From Octopus vulgaris (Eukaryota), in assembly GCA_951406725.2 (NCBI GenBank), contig CATOCA020000004.1, positions 434,001 through 498,000 on the forward strand: DNA of 64,000 nucleotides. Direction: 5' to 3'. The notes beneath the pieces were generated by a model. The model ran no database searches and had not been told where the DNA came from. It was given only the letters and a program-made list of their open reading frames with translations. Numbering within the stretch: the stretch's first letter is position 1; each line of letters opens with the position of its first letter. The position numbers and the translations under genes are program-made. Shown piece after piece: positions 60 to 49,212 of this stretch.

Positions 60-103
<44 letters not shown>

Positions 104-220
104 TGTGTGTATGTCGATATTCAGTTTTATTTCAAGATTTCTTGCCAATAGAAAAAGAACCGGTTTCTAACCTAGATCCAAGGTTCCGCCACTGGAATTT
201 CAATAACATCTTTTATTTTT

Positions 221-8643: not shown

Positions 8644-8802
8644 CCTTTTCATGCACTTGTGCACAAATGCCTGCATCCTTCGATCCATGCCAGCATTCGC
8701 AACAAAACTGACTCCTGTTCTATATTGAAGAGATGAGGAGTTACGTACATTATTTACATTATTTACATTTGACGGATATCTGTCCTCGTCTTGTTTGTTG
8801 TC

Positions 8803-8848
8803 AACACAACGTTTCGGCTGGTATACCCTCCAGCCTTCATCAGGTGTC
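8803..8848 (-). ncRNA. Minimal type I hammerhead ribozyme (Penelope-type)
   Basis: Minus strand gacac-CUGAUGA-a-ggcugg/agggUAUA/ccagcc-GAAA-cGUU-guguu: core, 6-bp stem II, palindromic ACGU stem III, stem I gacac/guguu. Confidence 0.75.
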
Positions 8849-8923
8849 TTGAGGGGAAATTTCGAACGCCATATGCCCACGGGTTACTAACCCCAAGATT
8901 CTGAGTTCGATTCCAGGCAGTGA

Positions 8924-9470: not shown

Positions 9471-12400
9471 ACCACCACCACCACTTCACCTACCACTACC
9501 CAAACCATCACCACCACCACTCCACCATATCGACCACCATCAGCAGTTTCATCATTTCAAACACCAAAACCATCGCCACTAAAAGACCCACCACCACCAC
9601 TTCACCTACCACTACCCAAACCACTACCACCACCACTCCACCATATCGACCACCATCAGCAGTTTCATCACTTCAAACACCAAAACCATCGCCACTAAAA
9701 GACCCACCACCACCACTTCACCTACCACTACCCAAACCATCACCACCACCACTCCACCATATCGACCACCATCAGCAGTTTCATCATTTCAAACACCAAA
9801 ACCATCGCCAATAAAAGACCCACCACCACCACTTCACCTACCACTACCCAAACCACTACCACCACCACTCCACCATATCGACCACCATCAGCAGTTTCAT
9901 CACTTCAAACACCAAAACCATCGCCACTAAAAGACCCACCACCACCACCACCACTTCACCTACCACTACCCAAACCACTACCACCACCACTCCACCATAT
10001 CGACCACCATCAGCAGTTTCATCATTTCAAACACCAAAACCATCGCCACTAAAAGACCCACCACCACCACTTCACCTACCACTACCCAAACCACTACCAC
10101 CACCACTCCACCATATCGACCACCATCAGCAGTTTCATCACTTCAAACACCAAAACCATCGCCACTAAAAGACCCACCACCACCACCACCACTTCACCTA
10201 CCACTACCCAAACCACTACCACCACCACTCCACCATATCGACCACCATCAGCAGTTTCATCACTTCAAACACCAAAACCATCGCCACTAAAAGACCCACC
10301 ACCACCACTTCACCTACCACTACCCAAACCACTACCACCACCACTCCACCATATCCACCACCATCAGCAGTTTCATCATTTCAAACACCAAAACCGTCGC
10401 CACTAAAAGACCCACCACCACCACTTCACCTACCACTACCCAAACCACTACCACCACCACTCCACCATATCGACCACCATCAGCAGTTTCATCATTTCAA
10501 ACACCAAAACCATCGCCACTAAAAGACCCACCACCACCACTTCACCTACCACTACCCAAACCACTACCACCACCACTCCACCATATCGACCACCATCAGC
10601 AGTTTCATCATTTCAAACACCAAAACCATCGCCACTAAAAGACCCACCACCACCACTTCACCTACCACTACCCAAACCATCACCACCACCACTCCACCAT
10701 ATCGACCACCATCAGCAGTTTCATCATTTCAAACACCAAAACCATCGCCACTAAAAGACCCACCACCACCACTTCACCTACCACTACCCAAACCACTACC
10801 ACCACCACTCCACCATATCGACCACCATCAGCAGTTTCATCATTTCAAACACCAAAACCATCGCCACTAAAAGACCCACCACCACCACTTCACCTACCAC
10901 TACCCAAACCATCACCACCACCACTCCACCATATCGACCAGCATCAGCAGTTTCATCATTTCAAACACCAAAACCATCGCCACTAAAAGACCCACCACCA
11001 CCACTTCACCTACCACTACCCAAACCACTACCACCACCATCAAACACCAAAACCATCGCCACTAAAAGACCCACCACCACCACTTCACCTACCACTACCC
11101 AAACCACTACCACCACCACTCCACCATATCGACCACCATCAGCAGTTTCATCACTTCAAACACCAAAACCATCGCCACTAAAAGACCCACCACCACCACC
11201 ACCACTTCACCTACCACTACCCAAACCACTACCACCACCACTCCACCATATCGACCACCATCAGCAGTTTCATCATTTCAAACACCAAAACCATCGCCAC
11301 TAAAAGACCCACCACCACCACTTCACCTACCACTACCCAAACCACTACCACCACCACTCCACCATATCGACCACCATCAGCAGTTTCATCACTTCAAACA
11401 CCAAAACCATCGCCACTAAAAGACCCACCACCACCACCACCACTTCACCTACCACTACCCAAACCACTACCACCACCACTCCACCATATCGACCACCATC
11501 AGCAGTTTCATCATTTCAAACACCAAAACCATCGCCACTAAAAGACCCACCACCACCACTTCACCTACCACTACCCAAACCACTACCACCACCACTCCAC
11601 CATATCGACCACCATCAGCAGTTTCATCACTTCAAACACCAAAACCATCGCCACTAAAAGACCCACCACCACCACCACCACTTCACCTACCACTACCCAA
11701 ACCACTACCACCACCACTCCACCATATCGACCACCATCAGCAGTTTCATCACTTCAAACACCAAAACCATCGCCACTAAAAGACCCACCACCACCACTTC
11801 ACCTACCACTACCCAAACCACTACCACCACCACTCCACCATATCCACCACCATCAGCAGTTTCATCATTTCAAACACCAAAACCGTCGCCACTAAAAGAC
11901 CCACCACCACCACTTCACCTACCACTACCCAAACCACTACCACCACCACTCCACCATATCGACCACCATCAGCAGTTTCATCATTTCAAACACCAAAACC
12001 ATCGCCACTAAAAGACCCACCACCACCACTTCACCTACCACTACCCAAACCACTACCACCACCACTCCACCATATCGACCACCATCAGCAGTTTCATCAC
12101 TTCAAACACCAAAACCATCGCCACTAAAAGACCCACCACCACCACCACCACTTCACCTACCACTACCCAAACCACTACCACCACCACTCCACCATATCCA
12201 CCACCATCAGCAGTTTCATCATTTCAAACACCAAAACCATCGCCACTAAAAGACCCACCACCACCACTTCACCTACCACTACCCAAACCACTACCACCAC
12301 CACTCCACCATATCGACCACTATCAGCAGTTTCATCACTTCAAACACCAAAACCATCGCCACTAAAAGACCCACCACCACCACCACCACTTCACCTACCA

Positions 12401-15400
12401 CTACCCAAACCACTACCACCACCACTCCACCATATCGACCACCATCAGCAGTTTCATCATTTCAAACACCAAAACCATCGCCACTAAAAGACCCACCACC
12501 ACCACTTCACCTACCACTACCCAAACCACTACCACCACCACTCCACCATATCGACCACCATCAGCAGTTTCATCACTTCAAACACCAAAACCATCGCCAC
12601 TAAAAGACCCACCACCACCACCACCACTTCACCTACCACTACCCAAACCACTACCACCACCACTCCACCATATCGACCACCATCATCAGTTTCATCACTT
12701 CAAACACCAAAACCATCGCCACTAAAAGACCCACCACCACCACTTCACCTACCACTACCCAAACCACTACCACCACCACTCCACCATATCCACCACCATC
12801 AGCAGTTTCATCACTTCAAACACCAAAACCATCGCCACTAAAAGACCCACCACCACCACTTCACCTACCACTACCCAAACCACTACCACCACCACTCCAC
12901 CATATCGACCACCATCAGCAGTTTCATCATTTCAAACACCAAAACCATCGCCACTAAAAGACCCACCACCACCACTTCACCTACCACTACCCAAACCACT
13001 ACCACCACCACTCCACCATATCGACCACCATCAGCAGTTTCATCACTTCAAACACCAAAACCATCGCCACTAAAAGACCCACCACCACCACCACCACTTC
13101 ACCTACCACTACCCAAACCACTACCACCACCACTCCACCATATCGACCACCATCAGCAGTTTCATCATTTCAAACACCAAAACCATCGCCACTAAAAGAC
13201 CCACCACCACCACTTCACCTACCACTACCCAAACCACTACCACCACCACTCCACCATATCGACCACCATCAGCAGTTTCATCACTTCAAACACCAAAACC
13301 ATCGCCACTAAAAGACCCACCACCACCACTTCACCTACCACTACCCAAACCATCACCACCACCACTCCACCATATCGACCACCATCAGCAGTTTCATCAC
13401 TTCAAACACCAAAACCATCGCCACTAAAAGACCCACCACCACCACCACCACTTCACCTACCACTACCCAAACCACTAGCACCACCACTCCACCATATCCA
13501 CCACCATCAGCAGTTTCATCATTTCAAACACCAAAACCATCGCCACTAAAAGACCCACCACCACCACTTCACCTACCACTACCCAAACCACTACCACCAC
13601 CACTCCACCATATCGACCACCATCAGCAGTTTCATCACTTCAAACACCAAAACCATCGCCACTAAAAGACCCACCACCACCACCACCACTTCACCTACCA
13701 CTACCCAAACCACTACCACCACCACTCCACCATATCGACCACCATCAGCAGTTTCATCATTTCAAACACCAAAACCATCGCCACTAAAAGACCCACCACC
13801 ACCACTTCACCTACCACTACCCAAACCACTACCACCACCACTCCACCATATCGACCACCATCAGCAGTTTCATCACTTCAAACACCAAAACCATCGCCAC
13901 TTAAAGACCCACCACCACCACTTCACCTACCACTACCCAAACCATCACCACCACCACTCCACCATATCGACCACCATCAGCAGTTTCATCACTTCAAACA
14001 CCAAAACCATCGCCACTAAAAGACCCACCACCACCACTTCACCTACCACTACCCAAACCACTACCACCACCACTCCACCATATCCACCACCATCAGCAGT
14101 TTCATCACTTCAAACACCAAAACCATCGCCACTAAAAGACCCACCACCACCACTTCACCTACCACTACCCAAACCACTACCACCACCACTCCACCATATC
14201 GACCACCATCAGCAGTTTCATCACTTCAAACACCAAAACCATCGCCACTAAAAGACCCACCACCACCACCACCACTTCACCTACCACTACCCAAACCACT
14301 ACCACCACCACTCCACCATATCGACCACCATCAGCAGTTTCATCACTTCAAACACCAAAACCATCGCCACTAAAAGACCCACCACCACCACCACCACTTC
14401 ACCTACCACTACCCAAACCACTACCACCACCACTCCACCATATCGACCACCATCAGCAGTTTCATCACTTCAAACACCAAAACCATCGCCACTAAAAGAC
14501 CCACCACCACCACCACCACTTCACCTACCACTACCCAAACCATCACCACCACCACTCCACCATATCGACCACCATCAGCAGTTTTATCACTTCAAACACC
14601 AAAACCATCGCCACTAAAAGACCCACCACCACCACCACCACTTCACCTACCACTACCCAAACCATCACCACCACCACTCCACCATATCCACCACCATCAG
14701 CAGTTTCATCACTTCAAACACCAAAACCATCGCCACTAAAAGACCCACCACCACCACCACCACTTCACCTACCACTACCCAAACCATCACCACCACCACT
14801 CCACCATATCCACCACCATCAGCAGTTTCATCACTTCAAACACCAAAACCATCGCCACTAAAAGACCCACCACTACCACCACCACTTCACCTACCACTAC
14901 CCAAACCATCACCACCACCACTCCACCATATCCACCACCATCAGCAGTTTCATCACTTCAAACACCAAAACCATCGCCACTAAAAGACCCACCACCACCA
15001 CTTCACCTACCACTACCCAAACCACTACCACCACCACTCCACCATATCGGCCACCATCAGCAGTTTTATCACTTCAAACACCAAAACCATCGCCACTAAA
15101 AGACCCACCACCACCACTTCACCTACCACTACCCAAACCACTACCACCACCACTCCACCATATCGACCACCATCAGCAGTTTCATCACTTCAAACACCAA
15201 AACCATCGCCACTAAAAGACCCACCACCACCACTTCACCTACCACTACCCAAACCACTACCACCACCACTCCACCATATCCACCACCATCAGCAGTTTCA
15301 TCATTTCAAACACCAAAACCATCGCCACTAAAAGACCCACCACCACCACCACCACTTCACCTACCATTACCCAAACCACCACCATCACTCCACCATATCG

Positions 15401-15475
15401 ACCACCATCAGCAGTTTTATCATTTCAAACACCAAAACCATCGCCACTAAAAGACCCACCACCACCACCACCACC
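9470..15475. repeat. CA-rich tandem satellite, 116/122-bp units, about 50 copies
   Basis: Unit catttcaaacaccaaaaccatcgccactaaaagacccaccaccaccacttcacctaccactacccaaaccactaccaccaccactccaccatatcgaccaccatcagcagtttcat. Confidence 0.97.
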
Positions 15476-33827: not shown

Positions 33828-35697
33828 TTTCAATACAAGAAAAAAAAAAAAACGGAAGAAACAAAACGTCTGAGAAAACGAATTTTTCGTCAGTAACGAA
33901 CAGTGATGAGTTTATTGTTTTAAACGATGTATTATTATCAATTTCCCCTTCTCTATCTCACATCTGGGTCTTGTAAGCGCGGATAGATTCAACTCCCTTC
34001 ATTTCCAAACTTTATTTTCGTGTGTCGTCTGCTAGTTATTCAGTTTGGCGCGCAATTGTCTCTCCATCAGATAAGAAGATAGCGGACATATTTTACAACA
34101 GATATATGTGTTAAAATCACGCCATCGCCGAGCTGGCTTGTTTTATTTTTACGTTTTCACAAACCCTCAGGGTATCCATAAATCATCCACGTCTCTCGCC
34201 TTTTACGTGTGAACCTGTACTCTTTTTTTATATTGCCTTCGTTTCAATCATTTGGCTGCGGCCATGCTGGGGCACAGTATGTCATGTTGAACAGCAGTCC
34301 ACAACCAATTTTATGGCATGGCCATCCATGATAATTTTTCCACGGACGCAAAAAGCTACCACGGACATAACAAACCACAGTAAAGGGCTTAATAAATATA
34401 TATATAGGGTAAAGACCCCCTTCGGTCATGAATGACCATGGGATTGCACCTAGAAAGTTACCCTCCTAGACACAAGTCCGGGCAAGGTTGTTTATGGAAG
34501 GCCAGCAGTCGCCCATGCATACCAGCCTCCCCTCTCCACGCCACCAGTGTTGTCCAAGGGAAATTTGCTACCCAGGTATCGGTTAACCGAATTATCTATA
34601 ATAAGATAATTCATTCAACTACTCAAATATATATATATATACTCTTTTACCTGTTTCAGTCATTTGACTGTGGCCATGCTGGAGCACCGCCTTTTAGTCG
34701 AGCAAATCGACTCCAGGACTTATTCTTTGTAAGCCTAGTACTTATTCTATCGGTCTCTTTTGCCGAACCACTAAGATACGGGGACGTAAACACACCAGCA
34801 TCGGTTGCCAAGCGATGCTGGGAGGACAAACAGACACACAAACATACACACACACACACAGACAGACACACACACACACACACACCTATATATATATATA
34901 TATACATAAATACACATATACAACGGGCTTCTTCTAGTTTCCATTTACCAATTCCACTCACAAGGCTTTGGTCGGCCTGAGGCTATAGTAGAAGACGCTT
35001 GCCCAAGGTGCCACACAGTGGGACTAAACCCGCGACCATGTGGTCAGTAAGCAAGCTACTTACCACACAGCCACACCTGCGCCTCTCTCTATATATATTC
35101 TTTTATTCTTTTACTTGTTTCGGTCATTTGACTTTGGCCATGTTGGAGCACCGTCTTAAATGGTCTTTTAGTCGAAGAAATCGACCCGAGGACTATATTC
35201 TTTGTAAGCCTTAGTACTCATTCTATCGGACTATTTTGCCGAACTGCTAAGTTACAGGGATGTAAACACACAAACATTATTAGCTTTTTAGCGATGGTAA
35301 CGCGATGGGGAGCAAACATAGACACACTCACACACACACACACATAAATACAAGGGGCTTCTTTCAGTTTCCGTTTGCCAAATCTGACACTTGCCCAAGG
35401 TGCCATGCAGTGCGACTGAACCTGGAACCATGTGGTTGCGTGGCAAGCTTCTTACCACCCAGCCACGCTGGTCCTTCCCTTTATTTCTCTAAGACCACAT
35501 TCAGTCACTAGGCTACGGCCATGCTGGATCACTTGCTCTGAATGGATTTTACTTGATTTAATCAATTCACTGCCACCACCACCATCATCATCATCAACAT
35601 CAACAACAAGTCTTCTTTCTGTTATTTAATTTATTGCTTTTTTCAATAAACCAAGTTAAGTAAAAGTAGACACAGAGACAGAAATATGGATGGATAA

Positions 35698-35752
<55 letters not shown>

Positions 35753-35764
35753 CACACACACACA

Positions 35765-35809
<45 letters not shown>

Positions 35810-35819
<10 letters not shown>

Positions 35820-36530
35820 TATATTATATTATATATATATATATATTATATTATATATATATATATATTATATTATATTATATATATATTATATTATATT
35901 ATATATATATATATATATATTATATTATATTATATTATATATATATATATTATATTATATATATATATATATATATTATATTATATATATATATATTATA
36001 TTATATATATATTATATTATATTATATATATATATATATTATATTATATTATATTATATATATATATATATATTATATTATATTATATATATATTATATT
36101 ATATTATATATATATATATTATATTATATATATATTATATTATATTATATATATATATATATTATATTATATTATATTATATATATATATATATTATATT
36201 ATATTATATATATATATATATATTATATTATATTATATTATATATATATTACATATATTATATTATATATATATTACATATATTATATTATATATATATT
36301 ACTTATATTATATATATATTACATATATTATATTATATATATATTACTTATATTATATATATATTACATATATTATATCATATTATATTATATATATATT
36401 ATATCATATTATATTATATATATATTATATTATATTATATATATATTATATTATATTATATTATATATATATTATATTATATTATATTATATATATATTA
36501 TATTATATATTTTATTATATTATATTATAT
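35810..36530. repeat. AT-only (TA/TTATA)n expansion, left arm only
   Basis: Direct. Confidence 0.95.
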
Positions 36531-36537
36531 ACACATA

Positions 36538-36855
36538 TTGGGTTGGCAACTAAGTTTCTTTAAATTTTGGAATTTATTGCGTTTTTAAATTTTGGAATAC
36601 AGTTTTTTTCAAGAATTCTATCTTTGTATCATTTTGGAATCGATTTTGTTTTTTTTGTTTTTCTAGTTAATTATAATTTATTTTTGTTTATTTTCAGATC
36701 ATTAAAATGGGATGTCAAGTTAAGAAAAACGAGCATTTTCAACACCTGCTTCTTTTTGAGTGAAAACCTTTTAATCAAGGTTCATAGGCTGCGAAAGCTG
36801 CTCACTACATTTGTGCTGTGTATGGAGTGGGTGCCATAGCTGAAAGAACTGCACC
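36538..36855 (+). mobile_element. mariner transposon 5' end (TIR plus pseudogenised transposase N-terminus)
   Basis: TA|TTGGGTTGGCAACTAAG; ATG at 36707: MGCQVKKNEHFQHLLLF..AAKAAHYICAVYGVGAIAERTA with stops. Confidence 0.85.
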
Positions 36856-37703
36856 CAACACCAGAGCAGAAGATACCTCCGGTAGAGGAATAGGGGCCAA
36901 AAGCGGACATGGTTCCTCCTGATGATGTCTTGAGCTAGCTGGATCCTATAAAGGAGCTGTTGTGGTAGCAGACCACGAAACACGGTTGTAATTCCTCAGT
37001 ATATATGAGAGGATTCTTTTAGTTCCCATTTACCAAGTTCACCAATCTGGGGCTAAAGTAGATGCTTGCCTAGGGTGCTAAGCAGTGGGACTGAACCACC
37101 CAACACCAGATCTGAAGACACCTCCGAAAGGTGGGGCTCCCCACCACTCCACTGCTCTTGAAATTCCTCTATCTGCAAGGACATCCAAACAGATCCCTAA
37201 TTTGGGAGAGTAAACAAACAGAGATACGTAAAACCTTTTTCCGTGATTGTTATTGATCTTCAGCTAGGATAGGTTTAAATATCTCATTTTTTCACTCTAT
37301 TTCTGTGACTTGGGTTTCAAATCCTTCCCAGTCTAAAAGTAATTTTTTTTGTTATTAACTGAAATAAATTTAAATATCTTTATTTTCCCTTTAACATTGT
37401 TGCTGCTTTGTCTGTTAAATGGTGGTTTGGGTTTCAATTCCTTCCCAGTCAAAAAGTAATTTTTTTTTTTGTTATTAACTGAAATAAATTGAAATATCTT
37501 TATTTTCCTGTTAACATTGTTTCTGCTTTGTCTGTTAAATTGTGGTTTTTGTTTCAATTCCTTCCCAGTCTAAAAATTATTTTCTTGTTATTGAGTGAAG
37601 TATTATGATTATAGACAAGTGGCTAGAGATGGTCACAACTGGAGTGTCGTTAATTATAATTGGTCTGGTAGAGTAGAACTAATCTGGAGTAAACAATGAA
37701 GCA

Positions 37704-37749
<46 letters not shown>

Positions 37750-37974
37750 AATGGGTCTCAAGACAGCCTTGCTATAGTTACCAAATCTTTTCATTAGGCA
37801 CAAAAATTTAAAAAAACTTAAATATCTTTATTTTTTTTTACCCTTTAACATTGTTACTGCTTTGTCTGTTAAATGGTGGTTTGGGTTTCAATTCCTTCCC
37901 AGTCTAAAAATTATTTTTCATTAACTGAAATTGGTCTGGTGGTGTAGAACTAATCTGGAGCAAACAATGACGCA

Positions 37975-38014
<40 letters not shown>

Positions 38015-38354
38015 AATGGGTCTCAAGACAGCCTTGCTATAGTTACCAAATCCTTTCATTAGGCACAAAAATTTAACTAAGTTTAAATATCTTTATTTTT
38101 TTTTACCCTTTAACATTGTTGCTGCTTTGTCTGTGGTTTGGGTTTCAATTCCTTCCCAGTCTAAAAATTATAATTTATTAACTGAAATTGGTCTGGTGGA
38201 GTAGAACTGATCTGGAGTAAACAACGAAGCATAGAGTGTGTGTGAAAAACGGATCTCAAGACAGCCTTGCCATAATTACCAAATTTAAATAAATTTAAAT
38301 ATCTTTATTTTTTTTTTACTCCTTAACATTGTTGCTGCTTTGTCTGTTCAAAAG

Positions 38355-38688
38355 TGGTTTGAGTTTCAATGTCTTCCCAGTCTAAAAGTAATTTTATTTT
38401 GGTGGTATGGGTTTCAATGTGTTCCCAGTCTAAAAGTAATTTTTTTTTGGTGGTTTGGGTTTCAATGTCTTCCCAGTCTAAAAGTAATTTTATTTTGGTG
38501 GTCTGGGTTTCAATGTCTTCCCAGTCTAAAAGTAATTTTATTTTGGTGGTCTGGGTTTCAATGTGTTCCCAGTCTAAAAGTAATTTTATTTTGGTGGTCT
38601 GGGTTTCAATGTGTTCCCAGTCTAAAAGTAATTTTTTTTTGGTGGTTTGGGTTTCAATGTCTTCCCAGTCTAAAAGTAATTTTTTTTC
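38355..38688. repeat. 48-bp minisatellite, 7 copies, left arm only
   Basis: ggtggtYtgggtttcaatgtSttcccagtctaaaagtaattttWtttt. Confidence 0.92.
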
Positions 38689-38739
38689 TTACTTACAGAA
38701 ATAGATTTAAATATCTGAATTTTTCCTTTAATTTTGTAG

Positions 38740-38942
38740 CAGCTTCTGTGGCCTAGTAGGTAAGGTGCTAGATGTAGTGGCATAATAATGGTTGAGGTTT
38801 CAAACCTCTGCCAGGAAATTCATTTTTTTTTCCACTAGAGACAAAAAAGTGAAAAATCTTGATTTCCTGGCAGAGGCTTGAAACCTCAACCATTATTATG
38901 CCACTACTTCTACAACCTTACCTACTAGGCCACAGAAGCTGC
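38740..38942. other. Convergent pair of tRNA-like (Pol III A/B-box) units at palindrome centre
   Basis: A-box-like tggcctagtagg, B-box-like ggtttcaaacc, then a T run; mirrored copy at 38860-38942. Confidence 0.55.
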
Positions 38943-39141
38943 TACAAAATTAATGGAAAAATTCATATATTTAAATCTATTTTTGTAAATAACAAAAAAA
39001 ATTACTTTTAGACTGGGAAGGAATTGAAACCCAAACCACCATTTAACAGACAAAGCAGCAACAATGTTAAGGAGTAAAAAAAAATAAAGATATTTAAATT
39101 TATTTAAATTTGGTAATTATGGCAAGGCTGTCTTGAGACCC

Positions 39142-39179
<38 letters not shown>

Positions 39180-39634
39180 GCGTCATTGTTTACTCCAGAT
39201 CAGTTCTACTCCACCAGACCAATTTCAGTTAATGAAAAATAATTTTTAGACTGGGAAGGAATTGAAACCCAAACCACCATTTAACAGACAAAGCAGTAAC
39301 AATGTTAAAGGGTAAAAAAATAAAGATATTTAAATTTATTTAAATTTTTGTGCCTAATGAAAAGATTTGGTAACTATGAGACCCATTTTTCACACACACA
39401 CACACACTATGCTTCGTTGTTTACTCCAGATCAGTTCTACTCCACCAGACCAATTTCAGTTATAAAAAAAATAATTTTTAGACTGAGAAGGATTTGAAAC
39501 CCTAACCACCATTTAACAGACAAAGCAGCAACAATGTTATGGGGTAAAAAAAAATAAAGATATTTAAATTTATTTGAATTTTTGTGCTTAATGAAAAGAT
39601 TTGGTAACTATGGCAAGACTGTCTTGAGACCCAT

Positions 39635-39676
<42 letters not shown>

Positions 39677-39799
39677 TGCTTCATTGTTTACTCCAGATTA
39701 GTTCTACTCTGCCAGGCCAATTATAATAAACGACACTCCCATTGTGACCATCTCTAGCCACTTGTCTATAATCATAATACTTCACTTAATAGCAAGAAA

Positions 39800-41770
39800 A
39801 TAATTTTTAGACTGGGAAGGAATTGAAACCCAAACCACCATTTAACAGATAAAGCAGCAACAATGTTAACGGGAAAATAAAGATATTTCAATTTATTTCA
39901 GTTAATAACAAAAGAAAAAATTACTTTTTGACTGGGAAGGAATTGAAACCCAAACCACCATTTAACAGACAAAGCAGCAACAATGTTAAGGGGTAAAAAT
40001 AAAGATATTTAAATTTATTTCAGTTAATAACAAAAAAAAATTACTTTTTGACTGGGAAGGAATTGAAACCCAAACCACCATTTAACAGACAAAGCAACAA
40101 CAATGTTAAGGGGTAAAAATAAAGATATTTAAATTTATTTCAGTTAATAACAAAAAAAAATTACTTTTTGACTGGGAAGGAATTGAAATCCAAACCACCA
40201 TTTAACAGACAAAGCAACAACAATGTTAAGGGGTAAAAATAAAGATATTTAAATTTATTTCAGTTAATAACAAAAAAAAATTACTTTTTGACTGGGAAGG
40301 AATTGAAACCCAAACCACCATTTAACAGACAAAGCAACAACAATGTTAAGGGGTAAAAATAAAGATATTTAAATTTATTTCAGTTAATAACAAAAAAAAA
40401 TTACTTTTTGACTGGGAAGGAATTGAAACCCAAACCACCATTTAACAGACAAAACAGCATCAATGTTAAGGGGTAAAAATAAAGATATTTAAATTTATTT
40501 CAGTTAATAACAAAAAAAAATACTTTTTGACAGGGAAGGAATTGAAACCCAAACCACCATTTAACAGACAAAACAGCATCAATGTTAAGGGGTAAAAATA
40601 AAGATATTTAAATTTATTTCAGTTAATAACAAAAAAAAAATACTTTTTGACTGGGAAGGAATTGAAACCCAAACCACCATTTAACAGACAAAACAGCATC
40701 AATGTTAAGGGGTAAAAATAAAGATATTTAAATTTATTTCAGTTAATAACAAAAAAAAAATACTTTTTGACAGGGAAGGAATTGAAACCCAAACCACCAT
40801 TTAACAGACAAAACAGCATCAATGTTAAGGGGTAAAAATAAAGATATTTAAATTTATTTCAGTTAATAACAAAAAAAAAATACTTTTTGACTGGGAAGGA
40901 ATTGAAACCCAAACCACCATTTAACAGACAAAACAGCATCAATGTTAAGGGGTAAAAATAAAGATATTTAAATTTATTTCAGTTAATAACAAAAAAAAAT
41001 ACTTTTTGACAGGGAAGGAATTGAAACCCAAACCACCATTTAACAGACAAAGCAACAACTATGTTAAGGGGTAAAAATAAAGATATTTAAATTTATTTCA
41101 GTTAATAACAAAAAAAATTACTTTTTGACTGGGAAGGAATTGAAACCCAAACCACCATTTAACAGACAAAACAGCATCAATGTTAAGGGGTAAAAATAAA
41201 GATATTTAAATTTATTTCAGTTAATAACAAAAAAAAATTACTTTTTGACTGGGAAGGAATTGAAACCCAAACCACCATTTAACAGACAAAGCAACAACTA
41301 TGTTAAGGGGTAAAAATAAAGATATTTAAATTTATTTCAGTTAATAACAAAAAAAAATTACTTTTTGACTGGGAAGGAATTGAAACCCAAACCACCATTT
41401 AACAGACAAAGCAGCATCAATGTTAAGGGGTAAAAATAAAGATATTTAAATTTATTTCAGTTAATAACAAAAAAAAATTACTTTTTGACTGGGAAGGATT
41501 TGAAACCCAAACCACCATTTAACAGACAAAACAGCATCAATGTTAAGGGGTAAAAATAAAGATATTTAAATTTATTTCAGTTAATAACAAAAAAAAATTA
41601 CTTTTTGACTGGGAAGGATTTGAAACCCAAACCACCATTTAACAGACAAAACAGCATCAATGTTAAGGGGTAAAAATAAAGATATTTAAATTTATTTCAG
41701 TTAATAACAAAAAAAAATTACTTTTTGACTGGGAAGGAATTGAAACCCAAACCACCATTTAGCAGACAAA
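39800..41770. repeat. 120-bp satellite, about 16 copies (2-3 copies in the left arm)
   Basis: Sequence lines recur with a 120-bp period: actgggaaggaattgaaacccaaaccacca... Confidence 0.95.
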
Positions 41771-41810
41771 CCCAACTCACAGAAACAGAGTCAAAAAATG
41801 AGATATTTAA

Positions 41811-42012
41811 CCCTTTAGTGTTCAGATTATTCTATATAACATAATGCTTATTGATTCACATGCATTATCTCATATCTTCAAGATCTTGATGGTGTAATTA
41901 CCTAATGTAGAATAACATTGTAGGGTAGGTGTGAGAGCCTGGATCTGGTCAGTTTGAACATAAAACAGATTAAATATTTTGGCCGGATATGGCCGGTTTA
42001 AATACTAAAGGG
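41811..42012. mobile_element. piggyBac-type MITE
   Basis: TTAA|CCCTTTAGT...ACTAAAGGG|TTAA; empty TTAA site in the other arm at ~37275. Confidence 0.92.
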
Positions 42013-42585
42013 TTAAACCTATCCTAGCTGAAGATCAATAACCAATCACAGAAAAAGGTTTTACGTATCTCTGTTTCTTTGCTCTCCCAAATCAGGGATC
42101 TGTTTGGATGTCCTTGCAGATAGAGGAATTTCAAGAGCAGTGGAGTGGTGGGGGTGAGTTAAAGGAGGAATTACAACCGTGTTTTGTGGTCTACTACCAC
42201 AACAGCTCCTTTATAGGATCCAGTTAGCTCAAGACATCATCAGGAGGAACCACGTCCGCTTTCGGCCCCTACTCCTCTACCGCTTTGACGAGGCGGAGCC
42301 CCACCTTTCGGAGGTGTCTTCAGATCTGGTGTTGGGTGGTTCAGTCCCACTGCTTAGCACTCTAGGCGAGCACTTTCTACTTTAGCCCCAGATTGGTGAA
42401 CTTGTTAAATGGAAACTAAAACAATCCTCTCATATATATACTGAGGAATTACAACCGTGTTTCGTGGTCTGCTACCACAACAGCTCCTTTATAGGATCCA
42501 GTTAGCTCAAGACATCATCAGGAGGAACCACGTCCGCTTTCGGCCCCTATTCCTCTACCGGAGGTGTCTTCTGCTCTGGTGTTGG

Positions 42586-42912
42586 GTGCAGTTCTTTCAG
42601 CTATGGCACCCACTCCATACACAGCACAAATGTAGCGAGCAGCTTTCGCAGCCTATGAACCTTGATTAAAAGGTTTTCACTCAAAAAGAAGCAGGTGTTG
42701 AAAATGCTCGTTTTTCTTAACTTGACATCCCATTTTAATGATCTGAAAATAAACAAAAATTAATTATAATTAACTAGAAAAAACAAAAAAAACAAAATCG
42801 ATTCCAAAATGATACAAAGATAGAATTCTTGAAAAAAACTGTATTCCAAAATTTAAAAACGCAATAAATTCCAAAATTTAAAGAAATGGCGGGAACTTAG
42901 TTACCAACCCAA
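42586..42912 (-). mobile_element. mariner 5' end, mirror copy
   Basis: Reverse complement of 36538-36855, ending CTTAGTTACCAACCCAA|TA. Confidence 0.85.
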
Positions 42913-43112
42913 TATATGTGTGTGTGTGTATGTATGTGTATATATATATATATGCATGTGTGTGTATATATATATATATATGTGTGTGTGTGTATATGTA
43001 TGTGTGTGTGTGTGTATATATATGTGTGTGTGTGTGTATATATATGTGTGTGTGTATATATATATGTTTGTGTGTGTATGTATATATATGTCTGTGTATA
43101 TATATATATATA

Positions 43113-43163
<51 letters not shown>

Positions 43164-43208
43164 ATATATGTGTGTGTGTATATATATGTGTGTGTGTGTG
43201 TATATATA

Positions 43209-43377
43209 TGGAGGCGCAATGGCCCAGTGGTTAGGGCAGCGGACTTGCGGTCGGAGGATCGCGGTTTCGATTCCCAGACCGGGCGTTGTGTGTGTTTATT
43301 GAGCGAAAACACCTAAAAGCTCCAAGAGGCTCCGGCAGGGGATGGTGGTGATCCCTGCTGTACTCTTTCACCACTCT
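43209..43377 (+). mobile_element. SINE family 4 (tRNA head), right arm only
   Basis: ggcgcaatggcccagtggttagggcagcggacttgcggtcggaggatcgcggtttcgattccc. Confidence 0.75.
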
Positions 43378-44286
43378 AAAGGCGGTGCTGCAGCATGGCC
43401 GCAGTCAAATGACTGAAACAAGTACAAAAAAAAAATATATATATATATATGTGTGTATATATATATATCCATCCATCCATCCATCTTTCTGTCTGTGTGT
43501 CTACCTTTTACTTAACTTGGTTTATTGATAAAAGCAATGAATTAAATAACAGAAAGAAGACTTGTTGTTGATGGTGATGGGGTGATGATGATGGCAGTGA
43601 ATTGATTAAATCAAGTAAAATCCATTCAGAGCAAGTGATCCAGCATGGCCGTAGCCTAGTGACTGAATGTGGTCTTAGAAAAATAAAGGGAAGGACCAGC
43701 GTGGCTGTATGGTAAGAAGCTTGCCACGCAACCACATGGTTCCAGGTTCAGTCGCACTGCATGGCACGTGTCAGATTTGGCAAACGGAAACTGAAAGAAG
43801 CCCCTTGTATTTATGTGTGTGTGTGAGTGTGTCTATGTTTGCTCCCCATCGCGTTACCATCGCTAAAAAGCTAATAATGTTGGTGCGTTTACATCCCTGG
43901 AACTTAGCAGTTCGGCAAAATAGGCCGATAGAATGAGTACTAAGGCTTACAAAGAATATAGTCCTCGGGTCGATTTCTTCGACTAAAAGACCATTTAAGA
44001 CGGTGCTCCAACATGGCCAAAGTCAAATGACCGAAACAAGTAAAAGAATAAAAGAATATATATATATATACATAGGCGCAGGTGTGGCTGTGTGGTAAGT
44101 AGCTTGCTTACCGCGCAGGTGTGGCTGTGTGGTAAGTAGCTTGCTTACTGACCACATGGTCGCGGGTTCAGTCCCACTGTGTGGCACCTTGGGCAAGAGT
44201 CTTCTACTATAGCCTCGGACCGACCAAAGCCTTGTGAGTGGAATTGGTAAATGGAAACTAGAAGAAGCCCGTTGTATATGTGTATT

Positions 44287-44338
<52 letters not shown>

Positions 44339-44972
44339 TGTGTGTGTGTATGTTTGTGTGTCTGTGTTTGTCCTCCCAGCATCGCTTGACAACCGATGCT
44401 GGTGTGTTTACGTCCCCGTAACTTAGCGGTTCGGCAAATGATACCGATAGAATAAGTACTAGGCTTGCAAAGAATAAGAATATATATACATGAGTGAGTG
44501 TTTTTGTGTCTGTGTTTGTTCCCCCACCACCGCGTGACAACCGGTGTTGGTGTGTTTACGTCGCCGTAACTTCGCGGTTTGGAAAATAAAGAAATAGAAG
44601 AAATGCCAGGCTTTGGAAACAGAAAGAAAAAGAAAAAAGTTCTGAGGTTGGTTTAAAATTAAAAAAAAAAAAAACCCTTCTAATCGGTGCCCCAGCATGG
44701 CCGCAGTCGGACGACCGAAATACCTGAACGGTAAATGACAACAACATAGCTTTTAAATGCACACCCGCAACATTTAGGAATACACGCGGACACACAGACA
44801 CAACCGAACAGATTGGGGGGTATATATATATATATATACTGCCTATACGTATGCATACATATGTGTGTGTGTGTATATGTATGTGTGTGTATATATCACA
44901 ACTGCTTGTTTTGTCGTATATGGGGGTAACTGCGAGCGCGTATAAGGCGATTGTTTGGGAATATACAGGTGA

Positions 44973-46381: not shown

Positions 46382-46705
46382 GGCGCAGGAGTGGCTGTGT
46401 GGTAAGTAGCTTGCTTACCAGCCACATGGTTCCGGGTTCAGTCCCACTGCGTGGCACCTTGGGCAAGTGTCTTCTACTATAGCCTCGGGCCAACCATTCC
46501 CTTGTGAGTGGATTTGGTAGACGGAAACTGAAAGAAGCCTGTCGTGGCTGTGTGGTAAGTAGCTTGCTAACCAACCACATGGCACCGGGTTCAGTCCCAC
46601 TGCGTGGCACCTTGGGCAAGTGTCTTCTACTATAGCCTCGGGCCGACCAATCCCTTGTGAGTGGATTTGGTAAATGGAAACTGAAAGAAGCCCGTCGTAT
46701 ATATG

Positions 46706-46754
<49 letters not shown>

Positions 46755-46955
46755 TTGTTCCCCTAGCATTGCTTGACAACCGATGCTGGTGTGTTTATGT
46801 CCCCGTTACTTAGCGGTTCGGCAAAAGAGACCGATAGAATAAGTACTGGGCTTACAAAAAAGAATAAGTCCCGGGGTCGAGTCGCTCGATTAAAGGCGAT
46901 GCTCCAGCATGGAGGCAGTCAAATGACTGAAACAAGTAAAAGAGTAAAAGAGTAA
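46382..46955 (+). mobile_element. SINE family 1 with duplicated head
   Basis: Two 5' halves, one tail. Confidence 0.9.
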
Positions 46956-47098
46956 ATAGCAGAAAACAAAAAATCAAATTTTGTTTTTCAAAACGAAACG
47001 AAAGAGAGAAAATAATGTTTGTTTTTGTATACTTTCAATTTATTTATATTTGAAAAGTTTTCTCCTGTTCCGTATTTACACAACTACATTCTTTAAAA

Positions 47099-47698
47099 TC
47101 TATACATATAAAATTGAAGTTACCTGTGGGTGGCAGGTTTGGTAGCCTTCAACTAACACTATCTCCCCCGAGACCCTGCGGCGCAAAGTTGACCAAAATT
47201 GAGAGTATGATAGAAGAAAGCTTGCTCTTACTTCCGTAGAAGAAAAAATTCAAATCGAACCATGTTAACACCAAAAATTATTTACATCAGAAAGGTGCTT
47301 TTTTTTCTATGAAAATCCCTATTTTTTACGATTTATAAAGCTGAAGTTGTCTGTGTGCACCAGGTTTGGTAGCCTTCAAATAACACTATCTCCCCCGAGA
47401 CCCTGCGGCACAAGTTGACCAAAATTGAGAGTATGATAGAAGAAAGCTTGCTCTTACTTCCGTAGAAGATAAAATTCAAATCAGACCATGTTAACACCAA
47501 AAATTATTTACATCAGAAAGGTGCTTTTTTTTCTATGAAAATCCCTATTTTTTGCGATTTTTTGACTGCTGTGTCGCCATTTTTCGGTGTATTTCAACCA
47601 AAAAAATGTTCACTTAAAGAGAATAACAAGCTACATAATGCCAAATTTTTACTTTTTAAAAATTCCAATTCTAAAGGGTCGAAACAAACCCGAGCAAT
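47099..47698 (+). mobile_element. Non-autonomous Helitron-like element with internal ~230-bp duplication, 3' end truncated
   Basis: A|TCTATACATATAAAA start; ends caaacccgagcaa, like the subterminal hairpin of 51164-51549. Confidence 0.65.
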
Positions 47699-47706
47699 GG
47701 GTTTCC

Positions 47707-47860
47707 ATATTTCGGGGTTATAACCACTTCTTCAGGACATTCGGAAAACCGGTAAGATGGAGAAGTTTGCCCGTCAGATGTGTTACACATCTGAGCAACG
47801 ACCTTTTCCAACTACTACTTTTCCGAATGTCCTGAAAAGGAGGTTATAACCCCGAAATAT
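47707..47860. repeat. Palindromic element with a degenerate hammerhead motif in each arm
   Basis: Centre cagatgtgt-t-acacatctg; arms read tgtcCTGAA(G/A)A.g.ggttataaccccGAAAtat outward. Confidence 0.8.
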
Positions 47861-48191
47861 AGAGCTACAAATTAAAAATGCTACTCTGCGACGGACACAC
47901 ATATATATATATAGACGTCGCATATATATGTATATAATTATATATATATATATGAATAAATCAAATATGTATGTATATATATATATATATGTGTATATAT
48001 ATATATATGTGTATGTATATATATATGTGTATGTATATATATGTGTATGTATATATATATATGTGTATGTATATATATATATATGTGTATGTATATATAT
48101 ATATGTGTATGTATATATATATATGTGTATGTATATATATATATATGTGTATGTATATATATATATATGTGTATGTATATATATATATGTG

Positions 48192-48238
<47 letters not shown>

Positions 48239-48277
48239 ATATATATATATATATGTATGTATATGTATATATATATA

Positions 48278-48758
48278 TTGGGGTCAACTAGAAAAGCTAA
48301 AACTCTATTCTCTCCAACGTCGTCGTGAGCGCTACATCATCTGCATGATGTGGAAAATATTCCATCAGCATTGCCCAAATGATGTTGGCATCACCTTTAA
48401 GGTACATCCAAGGCTTGGGCCCCGTGCCATCCGCCCAAAACAAAAATCGCACTCTCATCTCATAACAACAATACGGCACAATTATTTCACCTCAATTGGC
48501 CCCGCTCTCTTTAACATTACACCAAAAAACATTGAAACAGAAACTGACCCTATAGGGTTCAAGAAGTCTTTGGACAGATTCCTTCAAGAAATCCCGGATA
48601 AACCCCCTACACCCGGATATGTCTCTGTAAACAATAACTCTCTACTTGAGTGGGCCATAGTGCCCAAATTCTGACTTGAAAGACTTCACCAGGTGGTGCT
48701 ATTAAGTTAGACATGGCCTGGGCCAATAATGGCCGAAACCTATCAAAGTATCAAAGTA
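48278..48758 (+). mobile_element. 5'-truncated CR1/L2-group LINE (second family) in (TA)n
   Basis: [22 protein letters not shown]...[16 protein letters not shown] plus 3' UTR and (tatcaaag)n tail. Confidence 0.88.
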
Positions 48759-48794
48759 TATATGTATGTATGTATATATATGTATGTATGTATG

Positions 48795-48847
<53 letters not shown>

Positions 48848-48927
48848 GGGCATAGAGAGAGAGAGATAGAGGCAGAGAGAATATCCATATCTATATATAT
48901 AAAGACAGACATGAAAATATTTATCTA

Positions 48928-48966
<39 letters not shown>

Positions 48967-49212
48967 GTATAGATATGTGTACGTGTGTACTTACATGCGC
49001 ACAGGTATACGTGTGTGTATGGAGGTAAATAAAGACGTATTTACAAACGACAAAGTACATATGCACTCGTCATTATCAAATATTTCGCAACAATACGCGT
49101 CAGTGACGTAATCTCGAGTATTTCACCGACATTCTTACAGATATCCTCATACACACACATCGCATTATCATGCATTATGCTTATCAATATCTACACATGG
49201 ATATCATATATA

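Follow-up and report, generated by a model that had tools for sequence, protein, structure and literature searches.

A palindrome with two decayed hammerhead motifs in Octopus vulgaris and the Penelope-like family behind its arms

A rod-like fold carrying one ribozyme motif per strand is a feature of viroid-like RNAs, and the palindrome described here bears a superficial likeness to them. Another kind of element is closer. In PMC8557442, endonuclease-positive Penelope-like elements are described as having a reverse transcriptase (RT) followed by a C-terminal GIY-YIG endonuclease (EN). The metazoan members carry minimal hammerhead ribozymes, and pairs of motifs on opposite strands, about 100-700 bp apart, occur according to PMC4209133. 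The short "tail" of such insertions has been tied to two starts of reverse transcription (PMC11167929, excerpts). For Poseidon, the element of Anolis carolinensis treated in those excerpts, the authors found no RNA read whose end lay at the cleavage site, and cleavage was not needed in vitro.

The window, that is, the whole stretch of 64,000 nucleotides of Octopus vulgaris DNA that was analysed, contains a small palindrome with a hammerhead-like motif reading outward in each arm. Very probably, it consists of two 5'-truncated 3' ends of a Penelope-like element placed head to head, which were later eroded and whose ribozymes are mutated.

The palindrome and its surroundings

Positions in the family are numbered from the predicted cleavage base (hammerhead position 17), which is set to 0 and corresponds to 47861 on the plus strand and 47706 on the minus strand. 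The features of the palindrome are the following:

47707..47860, both strands: imperfect palindrome with a single central base, 47784 (T)
47774..47794, no strand: head-to-head junction, a 10-bp perfect inverted stem round the central T 47784
47702..47783, minus strand: left arm, assigned to the 5'-truncated pLTR (3' end) of a Penelope-like family, family positions -76..+4
47785..47888, plus strand: right arm, assigned to the same family, family positions -76..+27
47702..47740, minus strand: left decayed minimal type I hammerhead, C3 at 47735
47827..47866, plus strand: right decayed minimal type I hammerhead, C3 at 47832

An earlier note on this DNA had called the palindrome loop-less. In the outer block, 38 of the 41 positions of 47707-47747 are complementary to 47820-47860, and the innermost 10-bp stem is perfect and closes on the one central T. 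Between these two blocks, the pairing is imperfect and shifted by one base. The arms are about 80% alike over 160 nt. Folding of 47700-47870 (171 bases) gives -90.7 kcal/mol, with a z of -13.76 and none of 200 shuffles as stable. Both arms begin at family position -76, within a CA run where many family copies start. Compared with the majority sequence of the family described below, the left arm is 82% identical over 82 nt (E 4e-16) and the right arm 84% over 104 nt (E 2e-26).

The two hammerhead-like motifs quoted in the earlier note are indeed present at the places it gave, each with the mismatches it had mentioned. On the left, C3 to A9 and GAAA are intact, an extra base (9a) is present and stem II retains 4 of 5 pairs, but position 17 (47706) is a G. 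On the right, G8 is changed to A, stem II retains 4 of 5 pairs and stem I 3 of 5, and position 17 (47861) is an A; of the two arms, only the right one has the proposed AUA site, and the left one reads AUG. A G at position 17 or a change of G8 prevents hammerhead cleavage (on G8 changes, see also PMC11167929), and both window ribozymes are predicted from their sequence to be inactive. When the whole palindrome is folded, stems I and II have a predicted probability of 0.000 on both strands, and the fold-back would, according to this folding model, hide both ribozymes. An Rfam scan of 46500-49000 returned no hammerhead match at E<=10.

The symmetry had also been said to stop right at the predicted cleavage position on both sides. 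As a description this is acceptable, but it is position 17 that is mismatched, +1 and +2 pair again, and the right arm goes on. Past the site, 20 of 27 bases on the right match the family majority, up to 47888 (+27), against 9 of 27 on the left. The left arm ends at 47702 (+4), at its junction with a younger repeat, beyond which lies another fragment of the family:

47099..47701, plus strand: younger Helitron-like non-coding repeat, in partial tandem (47099-47334 and 47331-47699)
47066..47097, plus strand: third short piece of the Penelope-like family, family positions +74..+105, 30/32 identical, E 1e-6

The symmetry therefore ends near the cleavage site because a later event cut the left arm and because the right arm is substituted at +3 and +4. 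The repeat was found at 39 other places with 96-98% identity, among the best 40 of 766 candidates. The 13 copies viewed have a 5' start of the form A/TC and a 3' hairpin followed by a CTAG-type end; the window copy lacks the last 15-17 bases present in these 13. We take the A/TC start, the hairpin and the CTAG end to be hallmarks of non-autonomous Helitrons. The target of Helitrons is A/T, and the left junction lies at an A/T step of the family sequence (+5/+4 in plus-strand reading). The missing remainder of the left arm was not found elsewhere in the 64-kb window. The piece at 47066-47097 ends at the family +105 end and adjoins the Helitron-like 5' junction; one contig of run X20 departs from the window sequence at 47066. 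Since a contig of run X19 spans the left junction and the palindrome centre with one difference in 143 nt, the left junction is not an assembly artefact. Both outer ends of the window palindrome are lost, and the tail and the target duplication are therefore invisible at this locus. The presumed-RNA contig sets X1, X2, X6 and X11 contained no contig of the window palindrome, a result uninformative on expression, ends or circles; contigs of X2 and X6 represent other family copies (85-95%), several of them running through the cleavage site.

Other features of the window lie at a distance. Another family is represented by one minimal type I hammerhead, to all appearances intact, at about 8797-8850 on the minus strand (C3 at 8843); it has a full core, the extra base 9a, a U at position 17, a stem I of about 5 bp, a 6-bp stem II and a stem III formed by the palindrome ACGU. 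Positions 9472-15468 are occupied by a 6-kb C/A-rich satellite with units of about 116-122 bases, a higher-order period of 238 bases and 90-96% matches, which accounts for the strong GC skew at 10-16 kb. Finally, nested long inverted repeats form a fold-back arrangement of roughly 10 kb at 34719-44478 (34719-35718/43450-44478, 90%; 36531-37140/42295-42919, 96%; 37310-38399/38994-40073, 89%).

The Penelope-like family and its hammerhead

With the palindrome as query, the genome (2.8 Gb in 227 contigs) yielded 76 matches among the best 40 of 192 candidates; some of these matches are entire palindromes and many are single arms. Further searches and fetches led to 156 loci, merged to 111 regions; in each family search the best 40 candidates were scored, and two of the queries, including the palindrome, were biased toward copies extending past the cleavage site. 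L043, L044 and L045, which lie on contig C5 and hardly differ, represent a single locus multiplied by segmental duplication and were counted once. A majority sequence was built by script from 95 regions, and most copies are about 70-95% identical to it.

This majority sequence contains one open frame of about 290 codons, whose end lies 128 bases before the cleavage base, and no open frame passes through the hammerhead region. In the longer copies, a broken ORF with remains of an RT and then of a GIY-YIG domain lies upstream of the arm sequence, and in the family majority the two follow each other in this order in a single frame. Pfam GIY-YIG is found in L126 above the cut-off (E 9.5e-6) and in L043 with E 0.0016. 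A CxxC between the two GIY-YIG motifs is present in natural pieces as well as in the family majority, where three linker cysteines are visible. The RVT_1 match of L048 (E 4e-5) does not reach the curated cut-off; the other three of the four RT pieces tried gave E 0.02-0.05 only (two pieces) or nothing. Three other pieces had no relevant match in Pfam, a protein homologue search with the RT piece found none among the longer proteins, the linker-EN piece had one unnamed match, and an RT piece compared with the PDB had no significant match. Judged from these sequences, we assign the arms to the 3' ends (pLTR) of an endonuclease-positive Penelope-like retrotransposon family. An inverted Penelope pLTR relic was the reading that the earlier note had thought more probable, and it is supported by the fact that arm sequence follows RT/GIY-YIG ORF remains elsewhere in the genome. 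No full-length element is present among the loci fetched, in which the longest copies are about 1.2 kb, and this is why a pLTR is not seen on both sides of the ORF. Beyond +145, nothing is common to the 41 arms compared. A search of the open-access literature found no paper on this Penelope-like family, which does not show its absence from print or from repeat libraries.

Six further stretches were considered as a route to a full-length copy and rejected, as they represent a sister Penelope-like family about 70% alike (L171-L175). Its decayed hammerheads (L171, L174) carry a U in place of the stem I G.A mismatch described below, and in L171 an inverted end of 170 bases encloses a truncated body of 1.6 kb.

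The majority sequence of the octopus family matches the type I hammerhead core (C3-U4-G5-A6-N7-G8-A9, G12-A13-A14, A15.1, U16.1, H17) at every position, with CUGAAGA, GAAA, an AUAU palindrome, A17 and an extra A between 9 and 10.1. The consensus that the earlier note had deduced from the two mutated copies is thus recovered in the family. The core is intact in 55 of 107 arms (two segmental duplicates excluded), and 24 of these also have both stems with at least 4 of 5 pairs. Stem II, with 5 bp, G-C as its first pair and a 4-base loop, is fully paired in the majority sequence, each pair being kept in 67-98 of the 107 arms. Stem I has 4 of 5 pairs, the exception being a G.A mismatch found in 88/107 arms. 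Covariation had been proposed as a check; two-sided compensatory changes are almost absent, as would be expected if the copies decay neutrally. Loop II varies between subfamilies while stem II is kept.

Copies found by their ORF sequence were selected blind to the ribozyme. In these, the catalytic G12, a CpG base, is changed in 14/23 copies, and non-CpG core bases are changed at 18 of 243 positions versus 34.5 expected (p 0.0008). The first figure fits neutral decay, and the shortfall in the second points to selection: the ribozyme core was probably selected for in the source elements, but no longer in the copies once inserted. The pLTR carries the hammerhead as cargo.

Just past the ribozyme, the family has GT at +11/+12 (in 89 and 92 of 109 arms, respectively) together with a pyrimidine tract and, at +51, AG. 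These resemble splice signals, but they span 41 bases only (family +11..+51, e.g. L015 at about 1589-1630).

Ends of the family, inverted pairs and the origin of the palindrome

If the ends of the palindrome had been defined by ribozyme cleavage, as the earlier note considered, family copies should consistently end at the cleavage site. They do not. A census was made of 110 hammerhead-bearing arms at 94 loci, with the window and two segmental duplicates excluded: the end falls at +97..114 in 43 arms, at +135 or beyond in 35, at other positions in 29 and at 0..10 in 3, the two main classes (about +105 or about +145 beyond the predicted cleavage site) thus making up 78/110. In the subset found by the core pattern (24 loci, 29 arms), the same four classes contain 9, 9, 11 and 0 arms, but the patterns include one or two bases immediately past the site and are therefore blind to ends exactly at 0. 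The 37 loci found by ORF provide 28 terminal ends downstream of -130, none of them at the cleavage site: they fall at +4, +6 and +9, at +102..110 (eight), at +141..147 (three) and at scattered positions (fourteen). The three ends at +4..+9 are a slight excess over the approximately 0.7 expected, by hand estimate, from the scattered ends. Breaks in this interval are also found in the window, in L144 (a later insertion, with the rest of the arm present) and in L127 (an internal deletion). This weak excess is the sole result that leans towards the earlier note, and all such breaks lie past the cleavage base.

Both the +105 and the +145 ends follow the same AC-rich motif, AACTAC...ATT. They are 40 bases apart, a difference that matches the Penelope "tail" as described in the excerpts of PMC3846280 and PMC8557442. 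At the other end, 34 of the 110 arms start at -91..-60 and 3 at -155..-92, the starts lying just 3' of a C-rich, CA-repeat tract.

An inverted partner is present at 29 of the 94 other loci, 12 of which are short two-hammerhead palindromes like that of the window; the palindrome query enriches for palindromes, and the corresponding figures in the pattern-found subset are 6 and 4 of 24. When L043-L045 are counted separately, 40 opposite-strand junctions within 70 bases are minus-then-plus and 0 plus-then-minus, i.e. all of these close junctions join 5' ends and none joins 3' ends. Among the 30 inverted pairs (window included), both ends are canonical in 16: 14 associate +105 with +145, 2 associate +105 with +105, and none +145 with +145. 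Without L081, in which the plus piece is the tail alone, 13/15 pairs are +105 with +145. Rare non-CpG variants are shared at a rate of 0.52/100 nt within a locus (22 loci) against 0.095 between loci (6644 pairs), and the central junctions differ at all 14 loci listed. Each palindrome therefore appears to have been newly built from one source. In a comparison made for target-site duplication, the flanks have a word of at least 8 bases in common at 12/23 loci, against 18% of mismatched controls; this hints at such duplications, but the many microsatellite flanks confound it. The +105/+145 pairing may reflect a single insertion that uses both RNA starts, one per target strand, the palindromes being twin-primed with a fixed stop at about -76; we give this reading an even chance.

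Both arms of the window palindrome are likely to have been made in one insertion, the outer ends having since been eroded. According to the scheme that we favour slightly, in which twin priming is followed by a joining step, the element protein would cut both strands of an AT-rich target and prime cDNA from each end. On the RNA of one source copy, one cDNA would start at +145 and the other at +105; both would stop near -76 and then be joined. Later, a Helitron-like element would have inserted into the left arm at the A/T step that separates +4 from +5, and each arm would have lost its outer part. A plausible but less probable course is that a single cDNA, or an antisense template, folds at the CA run around -76 and primes itself, the second arm being cut or captured at +105. 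Such fold-back self-priming is proposed in the excerpts of PMC3846280. It is consistent with the near-equal arm starts of the short palindromes, with the small palindromes or overlaps at their junctions and with the rare variants common to the arms of one locus. However, the arms are very unequal in several pairs (e.g. -143 and -366 in L094), which would require internal annealing, whereas the in vitro cutting and extension of two strands, together with two starts bounding the tail (PMC11167929, excerpts), give the +105/+145 pairing directly. These data do not discriminate between twin priming and fold-back.

The two remaining explanations treat the palindrome as a unit in its own right. That it is a palindromic, MITE-like non-autonomous element, which arose a single time from Penelope ends and has since been copied whole, could account for 12 short palindromes among 94 loci, several of them centred at -69..-77. 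We nevertheless consider it very unlikely, since junction sequences differ at all 14 loci listed, the two ends differ (+105/+145), variants are common to the arms of one locus rather than to different loci, and most copies are single arms or an arm plus ORF. Even less credible, and practically to be discarded, is the viroid-like origin raised in the earlier note, i.e. a fold-back mini-element with one ribozyme per polarity and ends set by self-cleavage. The rod-like fold, the symmetry that stops no more than 2 bases from both predicted sites and the weak excess of breakpoints at +4..+9 would agree with it. But the right arm extends as far as +27 and the left one stops at a Helitron-like junction, the ORF-found copies have no end at the cleavage site (0/28) and the family ends lie at +105/+145. 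In addition, both ribozyme cores are mutated, stems I and II do not form in the predicted fold of either strand (probability 0.000), the central junctions differ among loci, and one sense ribozyme per strand, located at the 3' end, would release no unit-length RNA.

Comparison with known systems

Taken by itself, the locus is an ordinary transposon footprint in decay, and its interest is first that of a caution: a Penelope insertion in miniature normally takes the form of two outward hammerheads in a palindrome, and where the ends seem to match cleavage sites, this needs testing against the whole family. The +105/+145 pairing fits the two in vitro reverse-transcription starts of the lizard element and could inform integration; the window copy is a poor example of it, both its outer ends being lost.

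The architecture is already in print (PMC3846280, PMC8557442, PMC4209133, PMC11167929). Pen2a_Av and other endonuclease-positive Penelope-like insertions are likewise 5'-truncated with an inverted copy head to head, and such insertions likewise have a palindrome at the junction, AT-rich or microsatellite targets and an RT followed by GIY-YIG (PMC3846280, PMC8557442). Their tail of 30-40 bases, at one end only (PMC3846280), compares with 40 bases here. Unlike the Pen2a_Av-type insertions of the latter paper, the window arms are stubs of less than 110 bases with no ORF, both of whose outer ends are lost.

The minimal hammerheads of metazoan Penelope-like elements, as excerpted from PMC4209133, likewise have a type I core, an extra base between 9 and 10.1, G10.1-C11.1, a palindromic 15.2-16.2 and a short stem I. 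The octopus family differs from them by its 5-bp stem II, its 4-base loop and the fixed G.A of stem I, and in the window copies the core or position 17 is mutated. The Poseidon element of Anolis carolinensis (PMC11167929, excerpts) likewise has two ends past the hammerhead that bound a tail, and AC-rich sequence; its ORF starts in stem II, whereas the majority sequence of the octopus family has no open frame through the hammerhead region. Lastly, the non-LTR retrozymes, in the excerpts of 10.64898/2026.07.22.740005, likewise carry a type I hammerhead related to the pLTRs of Penelope-like elements. Compared with these retrozymes, the window has neither a head-to-tail tandem nor a unit lying between two same-strand ribozymes, and its cores are mutated: the ribozymes are on opposite strands, and the ends are at +4/+27 here and at +105/+145 in the family.
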